The notes beneath the pieces were generated by a model. The model was not told the DNA's origin and searched no databases. It saw nothing but the letters and a program-made list of their open reading frames with translations. DNA of 9,431 nucleotides, from IMG/VR virus record IMGVR_UViG_2778261165_000011, positions 1-9,431 of that record; one strand, 5' to 3'. The stretch comes from a virus (lineage: Duplodnaviria > Heunggongvirae > Uroviricota > Caudoviricetes). Numbering within the stretch: position 1 is the first letter of the stretch; each line of letters starts with the position of its first letter. Below, piece after piece: positions 3,913 through 7,910 of this stretch. Made by a program: the position numbers and the translations under genes.

Positions 3913-4045
3913 TTTTCGGGACTCCTGGCTGATTAAGTATGTCGATAAGGCGTTTCCATCCGTCACGTAATTTACGGGGGATTCGTTCAAGTAAAGATTC
4001 GGAAGGGCAGCCAGCAACAGGCCACCCTGCAATGGCATATTGCAT
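3881..4045 (-). CDS. cIII: cIII, inhibitor of FtsH-mediated cII degradation
   Basis: Hand translation of the minus strand from the ATG at 4045 gives MQYAIAGWPVAGCPSESLLERIPRKLRDG..., ending ...YGYPD* at 3881; 54 aa, matching recalled lambda cIII. Below the size cut-off of the supplied ORF track. Confidence 0.8.
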   Translation of the reverse strand: MQYAIAGWPVAGCPSESLLERIPRKLRDGWKRLIDILNQPGVPKNGSNNYGYPD

Positions 4046-4117
4046 GGTGTGCTCCTTATTTATACATAACGAAAAACGCCTCGAGTGAAGCGTAATTGGT
4101 ATGCGGTAACGCCGCGC

Positions 4118-4766: not shown

Positions 4767-4836
4767 ACGGATAGTCCTGGTATTGTTCCATCACATCCTG
4801 AGGATGCTCTTCGAACTCTTCAAATTCTTCTTCCAT
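4750..4836 (-). CDS. 28-aa acidic peptide (lambda orf28-like)
   Basis: ATG at 4836 preceded by GAGGTGA Shine-Dalgarno; encodes MEEEFEEFEEHPQDVMEQYQDYPYDCDY*. Its 3' end overlaps the ral ATG, the same arrangement as lambda orf28/ral. Confidence 0.4.
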   Translation of the reverse strand: MEEEFEEFEEHPQDVMEQYQDYPYDCDY

Positions 4837-4894
4837 ATCTCACCTCAAATAAGTGGTTTGCTGCCTAATTTCATTTTCTGGCGACCAACACAAG

Positions 4895-5167
4895 TCATCT
4901 TGCTGTCAGCTGTTTGGATTTCCTGTAGCCTGCCGCGTAAATGGCTACATTTGGAAGACAAGTTGAGCCTTCATATTTTCTGGTCAACGTTGTCAGTGTT
5001 ATTACTTCTGCTCTCATTACTGGTTTGCGTTTGCATTGTAAGACCACTCGTGAAGGGGTTGGCCTGTGTAGTTTGTCAGAGCTGATCGCCTCCTGACTTT
5101 GCAGGTTTGCACGACGAGCTCTACGGCGAGAAGCTGCGGTGCCTTTAAATTCTGTTTTTCTGGACAT
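4895..5167 (-). CDS. N: N-like transcription antiterminator (non-lambda type)
   Basis: 90 aa from the internal ATG at 5167, preceded by GGAGG at ~6-nt spacing. N-terminal arginine-rich motif MSRKTEFKGTAASRRRARRANLQ. First gene downstream of the predicted PL and nutL. The supplied 114-aa ORF is an N-terminal over-extension. Confidence 0.65.
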   Translation of the reverse strand: MSRKTEFKGTAASRRRARRANLQSQEAISSDKLHRPTPSRVVLQCKRKPVMRAEVITLTTLTRKYEGSTCLPNVAIYAAGYRKSKQLTAR

Positions 5168-5265
5168 AGATTCCTCCCGAATAAACTTTGGCGATGCAAT
5201 CTCGAAGCTCCTCCTGAGCCGGTTGCTTCGGCATTGCATCCCACAGCTTATGTGGTTGGGTGGTC

Positions 5266-5311
5266 TGGCTTTTCAGCCACGTAGTCGAGTGTTCGACGTT
5301 GTTTAAAGAGC
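5266..5311 (-). promoter_or_regulatory. nutL candidate (boxA-like plus boxB-like hairpin)
   Basis: Minus-strand sense: GGCUCUUUAAA (boxA-like, 5311-5301), then hairpin GUCGA-acac-UCGAC, then UGGC-UGAAAA-GCCA (5279-5266). The last element parallels the hairpin in nutR. Confidence 0.5.
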
Positions 5312-5349
5312 CTGCCAGTCTGTTCCATTTGGCTTCCAGCGTCCTGCTG

Positions 5350-5386
5350 ATGATTAAATAGTACGATATGTACTTTATCTGGTCAA
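5350..5386 (-). promoter_or_regulatory. PL candidate promoter
   Basis: Minus-strand TTGACC (-35, 5386-5381), 17-nt spacer, TACTAT (-10, 5363-5358); about 40 nt upstream of nutL. Confidence 0.5.
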
Positions 5387-5570
5387 TACGATTTGTTCTA
5401 TTGAGGGGTGGTTTTTTACAACGCTTTGTATTTAATAGTGTTGTTTTTTAGCGTGGGTGTATTGCCTCGGCGATGTAGGGAGAGATCAGAATTGCGTTGT
5501 TTAGTGAGTTGTATCTATTAATTTTAAAATAAATACAATTGGTTATGTGTTTTTTTGGGGGCGTTAGGCA

Positions 5571-5595
5571 AAGAAAACCCGGCGCGGAAGCCGGG
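5571..5595 (-). terminator. Intrinsic terminator ending the cI-side leftward operon
   Basis: Stem cccggc (5578-5583) / gccggg (5590-5595) with loop gcggaa. On the minus strand the hairpin is followed by UUUUCUUU; it lies 5 nt after the stop of the 177-aa ORF. A T-run on the plus side (5606-5611) suggests weak bidirectional activity. Confidence 0.6.
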
Positions 5596-5600
5596 TTGTC

Positions 5601-6134
5601 TCATTTTTTAGTTTGCTTTGGATTCGGTTTGTCTCTTCTTCCAATTATAAACACGCTAGTTAAAGCAACTAACTCAGCACCAAGAAGCCCGGTAGCCCAG
5701 CCATAAGCCTCGTGCTGAATCATCTTGTAAGCAATTCCTGCGAAAACAAAGACAGAAGTCATCGCAAAGATCTGTCCGAGTCGATCTCGCCAAATTGCTC
5801 CCCTCTGTCCTGCTTTGTAATACTCGTGTCTGTGTTTTTGCTCAGCCTTAGCCATGTCCATTATTTCGCGAGCGAATCCTGGAGATATTCTTTCGTACTT
5901 AGCTAATTCGTCAGCGTCTGGGAGTGGCCCTGATCTAGTGTGAGTCACCTGCATCATGATGCCAGCTAGATCTGGCCTGTCCATGAGGCGCTCAAGAACT
6001 TGAGGGTTCTTTGCGACCTCATTTATAAGCAGTTCGGTTTTACCGTCTTGAACTCGCCCTAACGGAGTTGGTTGGTTAACAAGATTTCTCGGGGCGGCGG
6101 TTTGAAGCTTTCTTTGGGATTTTTTTCTGCTCAT
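5601..6134 (-). CDS. Hypothetical membrane protein with two C-terminal TM helices, at the position of lambda rex
   Basis: 177-aa ORF: basic N-terminus (MSRKKSQRKLQTAAPR), charged central region (ELAKYERISPGFAREIMDMAKAEQKHRHEYYKAGQ), then IFAMTSVFVFAGIAYKMI and WATGLLGAELVALTSVFIIG. No similarity to recalled RexA or RexB. Weak Shine-Dalgarno; possibly translationally coupled. Confidence 0.55.
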   Translation of the reverse strand: MSRKKSQRKLQTAAPRNLVNQPTPLGRVQDGKTELLINEVAKNPQVLERLMDRPDLAGIMMQVTHTRSGPLPDADELAKYERISPGFAREIMDMAKAEQKHRHEYYKAGQRGAIWRDRLGQIFAMTSVFVFAGIAYKMIQHEAYGWATGLLGAELVALTSVFIIGRRDKPNPKQTKK

Positions 6135-6297
6135 TATCAGTTACAGCGTCTCTAACGTAACTACCTACCTTAACCCAATCTGAGTTGATAAGGTCGATGT
6201 CTGTAGCATTTGAATGATACTCGCTGTAGCTACCTGCTGGGCAAAGGTCAAGGATAGAGCCCATAGCGCTGAAAAAGTGCTTTGCAGATTTTTTCAT
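6076..6297 (-). CDS. Hypothetical 73-aa soluble protein, first gene of the cassette downstream of cI
   Basis: ATG at 6297 preceded by AGGA about 8 nt upstream; MKKSAKHFFSAMGSILDLCPAGSYSEYHSNATDIDLINSDWVKVGSYVRDAVTDNEQKKIPKKASNRRPEKSC. Its 3' end overlaps the 177-aa ORF start by 59 nt in another frame. Confidence 0.4.
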   Translation of the reverse strand: MKKSAKHFFSAMGSILDLCPAGSYSEYHSNATDIDLINSDWVKVGSYVRDAVTDNEQKKIPKKASNRRPEKSC

Positions 6298-6485
6298 GTG
6301 GGGTGTCCTATATGTTGTTTACTCTAATTTGAGTAATTGAAGTTTACGCAAAACCTAGCTTTCAGCAAGCAATACAGCACAAAAAAATCATGTAAATTTG
6401 CGTCTATTTTTATCTAACGGAAAAATGCTCAACAACTTTAGAGAAAAAATAGCAATACCAAATCAAACCAATTGCTGCTTCGCCT

Positions 6486-7145
6486 CTACCCAAACGTCTC
6501 TTCAGGCCACTGACTAGCGATAACTTTCCCCACAACGGAACAACTCTCATTGCATGGGATCATTGGGTATTGTGGGTTTAGTGGCTGTAGAAACACCTGA
6601 CCGCTATCCCTGATCAGTTTCTTGAAGGTAAACTCATCACCACCAAGTCTGGCTATGCAGAAATCGCCGGGCTCAACAGCTTGCTCTGGGTCAACCAGAA
6701 TTAACATCCCGTCAGGAAAACTAGGTTTGGAACCTGTTGGTGCGGTCATTGAGTTACCTTCAACCTCAAGCCAGAATGCAGAGTCACTGGCTTTTTTGGT
6801 TGTGCTTACCAATCTCTCCGCATCGCCTTTGGTAAAGGTTCTGAGTTCTGGAGAGAACATCCCAGCCTGAACATGAGAAAAAACAGGGTACTCATATTGT
6901 TTTTTAACTGGGGCCGATGAGTATTCGCCAACAGGTGAAAATGTCCCGTCGTGGTTGAATGATATGTTATCAATACCAAGGTATTTAAACACCACACCAA
7001 TATCACTAAGAGATGGATGACGAGATCCGCGCAACCAGTGTCCAATTCCACCCTGCGTCATACCTAGCTCTTCGGCTAACTTCTCTTGAGTTATGCCGAG
7101 CTCTTTCATTCTGGATCTAGCCAGTTCATACCATTTCATTTTCAT
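6486..7145 (-). CDS. cI: cI-family prophage repressor: non-lambda HTH N-terminal domain fused to a lambda-type S24 autocleavage C-terminal domain
   Basis: C-terminal ~135 aa ([29 protein letters not shown]...[12 protein letters not shown]) nearly identical to recalled lambda cI. N-terminus ([40 protein letters not shown]...) is a different HTH. Start placed at ATG 7145 (or 7139); the 256-aa track ORF over-extends into the operator region. Confidence 0.9.
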
Positions 7146-7256
7146 GTCCTTATTATTACGCTCTGTACTGGAACCATCCATGCACAATGTGTATTTTTTG
7201 CTTGTGTTTAATGAGTACATATTGTATTTTTTATTTGTGGTTACTATGGAGGGCAT
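7146..7256. promoter_or_regulatory. OR region with divergent PRM/PR promoters and candidate operators
   Basis: 111-bp gap between divergent cI and cro. Contains two ~20-bp direct repeats, aatgtgtattttttgcttgtg (~7186-7206) and tattgtattttttatttgtgg (~7220-7240), plus TACTAT and a GGAGGG Shine-Dalgarno just before the cro ATG. Exact operator boundaries not resolved. Confidence 0.5.
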
Positions 7257-7472
7257 ATGAGCAACCTACGAAAATATCGAGAGTCACTGAATATCTCTCA
7301 AACAACACTTGCTAAGGCAGTTGGATGCACACAGGGAGCTATCGGACATTGGGAATCTGGTCGTCGCTTCCCAGACCTTAAAACATGCCGTGCTCTTGTT
7401 GCGTGTCTAAACAAGTTAGGCGCAAAAGTAAGTCTTGATGATGTGTTCCCGCCGGAGCACAAAGCTGCTTAA
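7257..7472 (+). CDS. cro: Cro-like HTH repressor
   Basis: 71-aa ORF divergent from cI with GGAGGG Shine-Dalgarno; [28 protein letters not shown]. Recognition-helix motif TQG.IGHW is shared with the cI N-terminal domain. Confidence 0.8.
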
Positions 7473-7482
7473 TAAGCGGAGC

Positions 7483-7528
7483 CGCTCTTTGTAATAACGG
7501 ACATTCGTCCTACGTCGCTGAAAAGCGA
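7483..7528 (+). promoter_or_regulatory. nutR candidate (boxA plus boxB-like hairpin)
   Basis: CGCTCTTTG (7483-7491, boxA consensus), then hairpin GGAC-attc-GTCC, then TCGC-TGAAAA-GCGA (7515-7528). Located between cro and cII as in lambda. Confidence 0.5.
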
Positions 7529-7613
7529 GTCCCAAGATATCTGACCAACTAAGGCCATATGCGTTTCCACGCATACCTTTCAACTAACTATTCACTATTG
7601 GAAATCTTAAGAA

Positions 7614-7910
7614 ATGGAACGAACAAGTTACAGCAAACTATCACAGCGTGACGTTGATCGCGCAGAAACAGATTTACTCATCAACCTATCAACGCTTACC
7701 CAGCGCGGTCTGGCAAAGATGATTGGCTGTCATGAATCGAAGATAAGCAGAACGGACTGGAGATTTATTGCTTCGGTCTTGTGTGCTTTCGGAATGGCAT
7801 CAGACATCAGTCCGATTAGCAGGGCTTTTAAGTATGCGCTTGCTGAAATCACAAAGAAAAAATCCCCGGCCGCCACCGAGGATTTTAAGCAAATTGATAT
7901 GCAATTCTGA
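7614..7910 (+). CDS. cII: cII transcriptional activator
   Basis: 98-aa ORF. C-terminal part (...ITKKKSPAATEDFKQIDMQF) resembles recalled lambda cII (...TNKKRPAATERSEQIQMEF). Positioned between cro and O, overlapped by the oop terminator. Confidence 0.8.
   Translation: MERTSYSKLSQRDVDRAETDLLINLSTLTQRGLAKMIGCHESKISRTDWRFIASVLCAFGMASDISPISRAFKYALAEITKKKSPAATEDFKQIDMQF

Follow-up and report, generated by a model that had tools for sequence, protein, structure and literature searches.

Lambdoid nutL and nutR sites with a family-typical spacer hairpin and a GAAA boxB that corresponds to the arginine-rich motif of a predicted H-19B/HK97-family N protein

Two RNA sites in the window (the whole stretch of 9,431 nucleotides analysed here) are very probably, at about 0.85, the nutL and nutR sites of a lambdoid phage with an N protein of the H-19B/HK97 family, each containing a reducer-type spacer hairpin and a GAAA boxB. 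The anatomy of the sites, the conservation of their pairing through covariation and the correspondence between the boxB loop and the N motif were read directly, while N binding, contact of NusA with the spacer and antitermination would follow by homology and from the H-19B, lambda and P22 literature. At the sequence level, what is new relative to H-19B is a boxB loop that is one base shorter and is paired with a distinct N motif. The closest records are Stx phages such as VT2-Sakai and 1717.

The list of open reading frames together with Pfam and Rfam matches identified the window as a lambdoid early region. From left to right it carries exo, bet and gam-type genes and the cIII thermoregulator, then minus-strand N, a pair of small accessory ORFs and cI (HTH plus S24 peptidase), and finally cro, cII and O. 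The closest records, at 94-97% identity, were Stx-converting and related E. coli phages (VT2-Sakai, 1717, 2851, the Stx1-converting phage of strain Morioka V526, 2B8 and E212). The features surrounding the two sites are as follows.

4000-4058, minus strand: lambda cIII thermoregulator (Rfam RF01804, Lambda_thermo; full-length match, 88.5 bits, E 4e-21)
4895..5167, minus strand: predicted N antiterminator, 90 aa (Pfam PF25694, N_peptide; 112 bits, cut-off 27.9)
5181..5251, minus strand: long stem-loop in the N leader, from nutL to the N ribosome-binding site (predicted fold of -38.5 kcal/mol, z = -3.65)
5358..5386, minus strand: pL-like promoter, TTGACC, 17 nt, TACTAT (promoter scan), of the leftward transcript with nutL and N
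7257..7472, plus strand: cro (ORF list, HTH_3 match)
7614..7910, plus strand: cII, downstream of nutR (Pfam Phage_CII, 109 bits)

Both sites have the genomic positions of nut sites. nutL lies downstream of the pL-like promoter by ~45 nt and upstream of N, and nutR starts 11 nt past the cro stop codon, before cII. Just 3' of the pL-like promoter, the leader atcagcaggacgc is similar to the pL leaders of P22 and VT1-Sakai. A search of Rfam at a permissive threshold returned no nut or boxB family in the window, only the cIII thermoregulator and two chance-level matches. Between cI and N, the accessory ORFs at 5601-6134 and 6076-6297 (minus strand; 177 and 73 aa) occupy the position of rexAB or other morons, and a G+C-rich bidirectional terminator-like hairpin follows them at 5576-5597. 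This block is absent from most close relatives, in which the query 4800-7700 was covered only to about 68%.

The elements of the two sites are listed below, first for nutL and then for nutR.

5312-5304, minus strand: nutL boxA-like GGCTCTTTA (RNA GGCUCUUUA), by direct reading
5303-5298, minus strand: unpaired 5' segment of the nutL spacer, AACAAC; ACAAY varies very little across the H-19B/HK97 family
5297-5284, minus strand: nutL spacer hairpin GTCGA-acac-TCGAC, by folding and by covariation with other family members
5283-5280, minus strand: nutL UACG linker between spacer hairpin and boxB, kept in 228 of 229 family loci
5279-5266, minus strand: nutL boxB UGGCU-GAAA-AGCCA, with 5 bp, a U-A closing pair and a GNRA tetraloop
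7483-7491, plus strand: nutR boxA CGCTCTTTG (RNA CGCUCUUUG), by direct reading
7492-7498, plus strand: nutR single-stranded 5' part of the spacer, UAAUAAC; AACAAC or CACAAU in most relatives
7499-7510, plus strand: nutR spacer hairpin GGAC-auuc-GUCC, identical in H-19B and HK97
7511-7514, plus strand: nutR UACG linker, conserved
7515-7528, plus strand: nutR boxB UCGCU-GAAA-AGCGA, by folding and by the count of the shared motif

The original prediction, made from the sequence, had described two hairpins behind boxA at both sites, and this observation is real: direct reading agreed with RNA folding, in which the 46-nt segments of nutL and nutR each formed precisely these two hairpins. The 18-nt motif TACGTNGCTGAAAAGCNA common to nutL and nutR occurs exactly twice in the window and was never found in 200 shuffles. 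Some details needed adjustment. The start of nutL had been placed at 5311, one base short, as the G of GGCTCTTT sits at 5312. The TACGT noted before each second hairpin comprises UACG, the conserved linker, and a T that is instead the first base of the boxB stem and pairs with its last A; among relatives this first stem pair changes with compensation (U-A, A-U, C-G, G-C). Similarly, the UGAAAA loop was given with the right sequence but is better described as a tetraloop, GAAA, whose U-A closing pair belongs to a 5-bp stem, than as a hexaloop on 4 bp.

The boxA elements of nutL (GGCTCTTTA) and nutR (CGCTCTTTG) each match the P22 nutL boxA CGCTCTTTA at 8 of 9 positions, and a boxA near CGCUCUUUA is present upstream of each boxB. 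The nutL boxA GGCTCTTTAAC is also found in VT1-Sakai nutL, and the nutR boxA CGCUCUUUG corresponds to the H-19B nutR boxA CGCTATTTT (oligo RS662). Positions 7494-7498 of nutR read AUAAC, in contrast to ACAAC or ACAAU in nearly all relatives, and only three retrieved loci share the change.

The comparative set comprised about 265 loci encoding N relatives from phage records, IMG/VR contigs and GTDB genomes. It was supplied by the IMG/VR scans; the GTDB scan yielded only 16 loci, mostly with distant N proteins without this nut architecture. The hairpin test was anchored solely on ACAAY-N(11-17)-TACG upstream of N. This anchor was present in 228 of the 229 family loci; in every one of the 228 its interval was taken up by a hairpin with 4 bp or more, and 221 of them had a boxB of 5 bp with a loop of 4 or 5 nt. 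When 27 distinct nutL and nutR sequences were aligned (alignment A3), 99.2% of cells were paired, compared with 21-45% in slid controls, and changes on both sides were seen at seven of the ten pairs (4/5 in the spacer hairpin and 3/5 in boxB).

Spacer-hairpin stems in the family included GUCGA/UCGAC, GAUUC/GAAUC, GAUUC/GAGUC and GGAC/GUCC, together with the variants GGGC/GUCC, GGGC/GCCC, GGCC/GGCC and GGCA/UGCC found in nutR of relatives, and their loops spanned 3-6 nt. Among the 90-odd close relatives of the window, the nutL stem was fixed and only the loop varied (acac, ctc, actc, atc, gcac). As judged from these alignments, it is the pairing rather than the sequence of the spacer hairpin that is conserved, and both helices are under selection. 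Since G.U intermediates occur (GGGC/GUCC, GAUUC/GAGUC), the constraint acts on the RNA of this strand.

The G.U pairs also bear on a reading in which the inverted repeats either act in the DNA, as palindromic protein-binding sites, or are there by chance. GTCGA-N4-TCGAC is indeed a perfect DNA palindrome, and a scan marked 5284-5297 on the plus strand as terminator-like. However, pairing that is kept in relatives via G.U pairs corresponds to C.A mismatches on the other strand, and the motif shared by nutL and nutR was absent from all 200 shuffles, making this reading highly improbable. The plus-strand terminator-like match itself was rejected as being at chance level, with four such matches found and 2.4 expected.

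The intervening hairpin had been regarded as an unexplained extra element. It is instead standard in the H-19B/HK97 N family, with 228 of 229 loci carrying it, and the alignment of nut sites showed that the boxA-boxB spacing is standard for this family as well. H-19B nutR has been divided by the Sen laboratory into oligonucleotides for boxA CGCTATTTT (RS662), spacer CACAATGGACATTCGTCCTACG and boxB TCGCTGACAAAGCGA (PMC3526286, supplement). In the same work, H-19B nutR has two hairpins, its spacer and boxB loop are protected by N plus NusA, and its spacer is also protected by Rho alone (PMC3526286). The hairpin and UACG of the window nutR are identical to the H-19B nutR 'spacer' at 16 of 16 positions. 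Because the nutR hairpin lies inside the 'nutR spacer' oligonucleotide, the presumed extra hairpin forms the core of the spacer published for H-19B. We therefore consider the intervening hairpin, on the sequence comparison, to be a known, family-typical element that needs no new explanation.

The linear distance between boxA and boxB is 23-24 nt in the window, which is not the short unstructured spacer of about 8-11 nt expected of a lambdoid nut site. After discounting the hairpin, the distance becomes 10 nt in nutL and 11 nt in nutR, as the 'reducer' idea predicts. Neely & Friedman 2000 (Mol Microbiol 38:1074) reportedly described dyad symmetries in the spacers of H-19B nut sites and named the structure 'reducer', which is said to loop out surplus spacer RNA. 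In their reported mutants, breaking one arm inactivated the H-19B site, compensatory changes restored it and deletion had little effect; the H-19B-type site is also said to have a reduced need for NusB, S10 and boxA. For the window, the 'reducer' mechanism would rest on these H-19B genetics.

The spacer hairpin might alternatively be a functional RNA element itself, acting as a NusA contact surface, as a Rho-loading modulator at an overlapping nutR/tR1 rut site, or as a stability or processing element. The protection of the H-19B spacer by N plus NusA, and also by Rho alone, points in this direction (PMC3526286). So does the nutR hairpin GGACAUUCGUCC, which is nearly invariant over many immunity types; its near-invariance in most loci could come from the sharing of a module or from a role of the sequence itself that has gone unrecognised. 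However, the spacer stems are wholly different between nutL and nutR of one phage, and the diversity of stems (GUCGA, GAUUC, GGAC, GGCC, GGCA, GGGC) and of loops, in both sequence and length (3-6 nt), argues against sequence-specific recognition. The H-19B mutants also count against it, as restored pairing with a new sequence reportedly works and deletion of the dyad reportedly has little effect. Taken together, we consider a functional role for the hairpin itself unlikely, and retain the reducer-type spacer hairpin.

A second structural question concerns nutL, in which boxA (GGCU-C-UUU) can pair with the loop and 3' arm of boxB (AAA-AGCC) in an alternative helix. This helix encloses the spacer hairpin and might serve as a switch, concealing boxA and boxB before N or the Nus factors bind. 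For nutL RNAs of 55-106 nt, of the window and of the VT2-Sakai type, folding gives this helix as the energy minimum, with a boxB probability of about 0.15, and the first base of boxA (G vs C) matches the second boxB stem pair at each of the two window sites. In contrast, close relatives with UGCUCUUU (locus L056) or with AAGCUCUUU and a GCAA loop (Shigella phage 75/02) adopt the two-hairpin fold, H-19B/HK97-type nutL has no boxA at all, and local hairpins would form first during transcription. The base-pair probability of boxB in the window nutR is 0.9-1.0 in a 106-nt context, unlike the 66-nt nutR fold, which paired boxA with the 3' arm of boxB. Covariation of boxA position 1 (G/C) with the boxB stem was considered and rejected, since relatives lose it and the phi21-type VT1-Sakai has the same boxA; the boxA G thus reflects module sharing, as GGCTCTTTAAC also occurs with a phi21-type boxB in VT1-Sakai. 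Because close relatives lose the alternative helix, we treat it as probably incidental, and a regulatory switch of this kind seems quite unlikely. Given the modelled probability of about 0.15, the nutL boxB would need either folding during transcription or the binding of N in order to form.

The assignment of the second hairpin as boxB has held up. Its GAAA loop and closing pair are the same in nutL and nutR and its stems are compensated, whereas the first hairpins of the two sites differ in both stem and loop sequence (GUCGA-acac vs GGAC-auuc). The first hairpin lies downstream of boxA at about the distance of the lambda boxB, and might on that account be taken for the N-binding element. However, nutL and nutR have to be recognised by one and the same N, which disfavours a hairpin that differs between them, and the H-19B footprints place N on the second hairpin (PMC3526286). 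With the loop of the second hairpin tracking the N motif in 214 of 214 loci, N binding to the first hairpin is scarcely credible.

This tracking was counted in the 214 loci that hold both N and nutR (site extraction needed TACG, and nutR variants without it would be missed). The arginine-rich motifs of the N proteins fall into two classes: RRRERLKA(K/Q)A, as in H-19B, HK97 and SPN9CC types, and RRR(A/E/D)(R/H)RA(N/A/E)(L/F/M/V)Q, as in the window, VT2-Sakai, Shigella phage 75/02, Salmonella SI8 and an Enterobacter phage. All 87 loci with the LKA-type motif have a GACAA loop in nutR and all 127 with the RRA-type motif have GAAA, with no mixed locus. The nutL loops agree with the motif class, with GCAA (also GNRA) in the 75/02 group. 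N and nutR are separated by 1.3-3.7 kb across the immunity region in these loci, 5 of the 19 sequence types of the cro 3' end were found with both motif classes, and there are locus pairs whose cro ends are 100% identical but whose boxB loops are opposite. Linkage alone is therefore insufficient to account for the correspondence, which offers strong though indirect evidence that boxB, the predicted target of N, is the second hairpin and that the one-base difference in its loop matters.

The requirement of the lambda boxB for a GNRNA loop and a U7-A13 closing pair has been summarized (PMC12027372). The GAAA/GCAA boxB and the RRRxRRAxLQ motif may constitute a separate N-specificity class within the H-19B/HK97 family, a proposal to which we give an even chance. 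It would have a natural, true 4-nt GNRA tetraloop without a flipped-out base, and would show no cross-action with H-19B N even though nutR differs by a single nucleotide. If this is true, assembly of the complex with NusA would proceed without an extruded loop base. A literature search of an incomplete collection found no paper on a natural 4-nt GNRA boxB or on the RRRxRRAxLQ subclass, which is weak evidence of novelty; the matches either concerned the lambda boxB or were articles citing Neely & Friedman 2000.

In Salmonella phage SPN9CC (locus L011, 4357-4420) and six similar loci, the N motif is of the H-19B type and the GACAA loop of nutR is closed by U.G. At the boxB position of nutL, these loci have GCUC-cgucaac-GAGC, with a 4-bp stem and a 7-nt loop, which belongs to neither loop class.

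The predicted N protein starts with the ATG at 5167, preceded by GGAGG. Its arginine-rich motif GTAASRRRARRANLQ (SRRRARRANLQ) is N-terminal and encoded next to nutL, as expected of a cognate N. The protein shares 97-100% identity with its counterparts in VT2-Sakai, phage 1717 and EC.P3, and its homology to N of the H-19B type was seen in a tblastn match to HK97 (40% identity over 90/90 residues, E 4e-12). A sequence search of PDB chains gave no match for N. The ORF (4895-5239, minus strand) reaches 24 codons further upstream to an ATG at 5239, and this 114-aa form is annotated both in the Stx1-converting phage and in VT2-Sakai. Its extra segment would overlap the long stem-loop of the leader, and the 90-aa form is favoured as the probable product by its homologues, by Pfam coverage and by the GGAGG ahead of the ATG at 5167. 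The very stable stem-loop at 5181-5251 resembles the structure in the lambda N leader that is sensitive to RNase III. Two loci (L013, JAJXBQ010000280.1, and L017) with an N gene and nutL identical to those of the window are binned in a metagenome-assembled genome labelled Segatella copri, most likely representing a mis-binned enterobacterial phage contig.

By analogy with characterized systems, transcription from pL or pR would produce a nascent RNA that folds into two local hairpins, the spacer hairpin and boxB. The arginine-rich helix of N (SRRRARRANLQ) would bind boxB through the GAAA loop and the U-A closing pair. The spacer hairpin would have no sequence-specific role and would fold away 12-14 surplus nucleotides, leaving ACAAY and UACG (together 10-11 unpaired nt) as the effective spacer, with a boxA-boxB distance as in P22 or lambda. 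This effective spacer of about 10 nt would be the region that NusA contacts in H-19B. N, NusA, NusG and, where boxA is used, NusB and S10 would then ride with RNA polymerase through downstream terminators.

The extra hairpin should accordingly not be pursued as a novelty. The two N subclasses, whose boxB hairpins are one loop nucleotide apart (GAAA vs GACAA), instead offer a natural experiment on RNA-peptide specificity. Many Stx2 phages of E. coli O157:H7 (VT2-Sakai, 1717, 2851) have the N type of the window, and in them N-dependent read-through precedes late-gene and toxin expression, so annotations should give the boxB RNA target of this N type correctly.

Among known systems, the sites most closely resemble those of H-19B and HK97. 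The H-19B nutR (AF034975) reads CGCUAUUUU CACAAU GGAC-auuc-GUCC UACG UCGCU-GACAA-AGCGA, its nutL (AF034975) reads ...ACAAC GAUUC-gaauau-GAAUC UACG GCGCU-GACAA-AGCGC, and the HK97 nut sites read the same as those of H-19B. The window shares with them the genomic positions and the order of elements, from boxA (or boxA-like) through ACAAY, hairpin and UACG to a 5-bp boxB closed by U-A. Its nutR differs from that of H-19B only in boxA-proximal bases and one loop nucleotide, such that the boxB loop is GAAA (4 nt) and not the GACAA (5 nt) of H-19B, HK97 and P22. In nutL, the hairpin stem is GUCGA/UCGAC rather than GAUUC/GAAUC, and the window has a good boxA-like element (GGCUCUUUA), whereas H-19B nutL has none. 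The N proteins share about 40% identity along their full length, and their final 24 residues agree except at two conservative positions (I/L, A/V). However, N of the window has 90 aa compared with 127 aa in H-19B, with about 29 central residues and seven in the arginine-rich motif missing (alignment A2), and its motif SRRRARRANLQ contrasts with SRRRERLKAKAL (RRRERLKAKAL type) in H-19B.

P22 resembles the family of the window in its boxB stem (GCGCU/AGCGC, with a U-A closing pair), in its boxA (CGCUCUUUA) and in the C-terminal end of N, where LPxVAxYAAGxRKSKQxTAR is common to P22 gp24 and the window family. According to Cai et al. 1998, the P22 boxB loop is reportedly a GACAA pentaloop with one base extruded. 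The sites of P22 and of the phi21-type VT1-Sakai have no spacer hairpin, and boxA and boxB are separated by 11 (P22 nutL) or about 11 (VT1-Sakai) unpaired nt. Lambda shares with the window the boxA-spacer-boxB logic, a GNRA-like loop closed by U-A (a closing pair also common to P22) and binding through the N arginine-rich motif. Its spacer, however, is 8-9 nt without a hairpin, its N shows no detectable similarity to that of the window outside the motif, and its boxB loop is a pentaloop (GAAGA or GAAAA) that adopts the GNRA fold with one base flipped out, whereas the loop of the window is a plain 4-nt GNRA.
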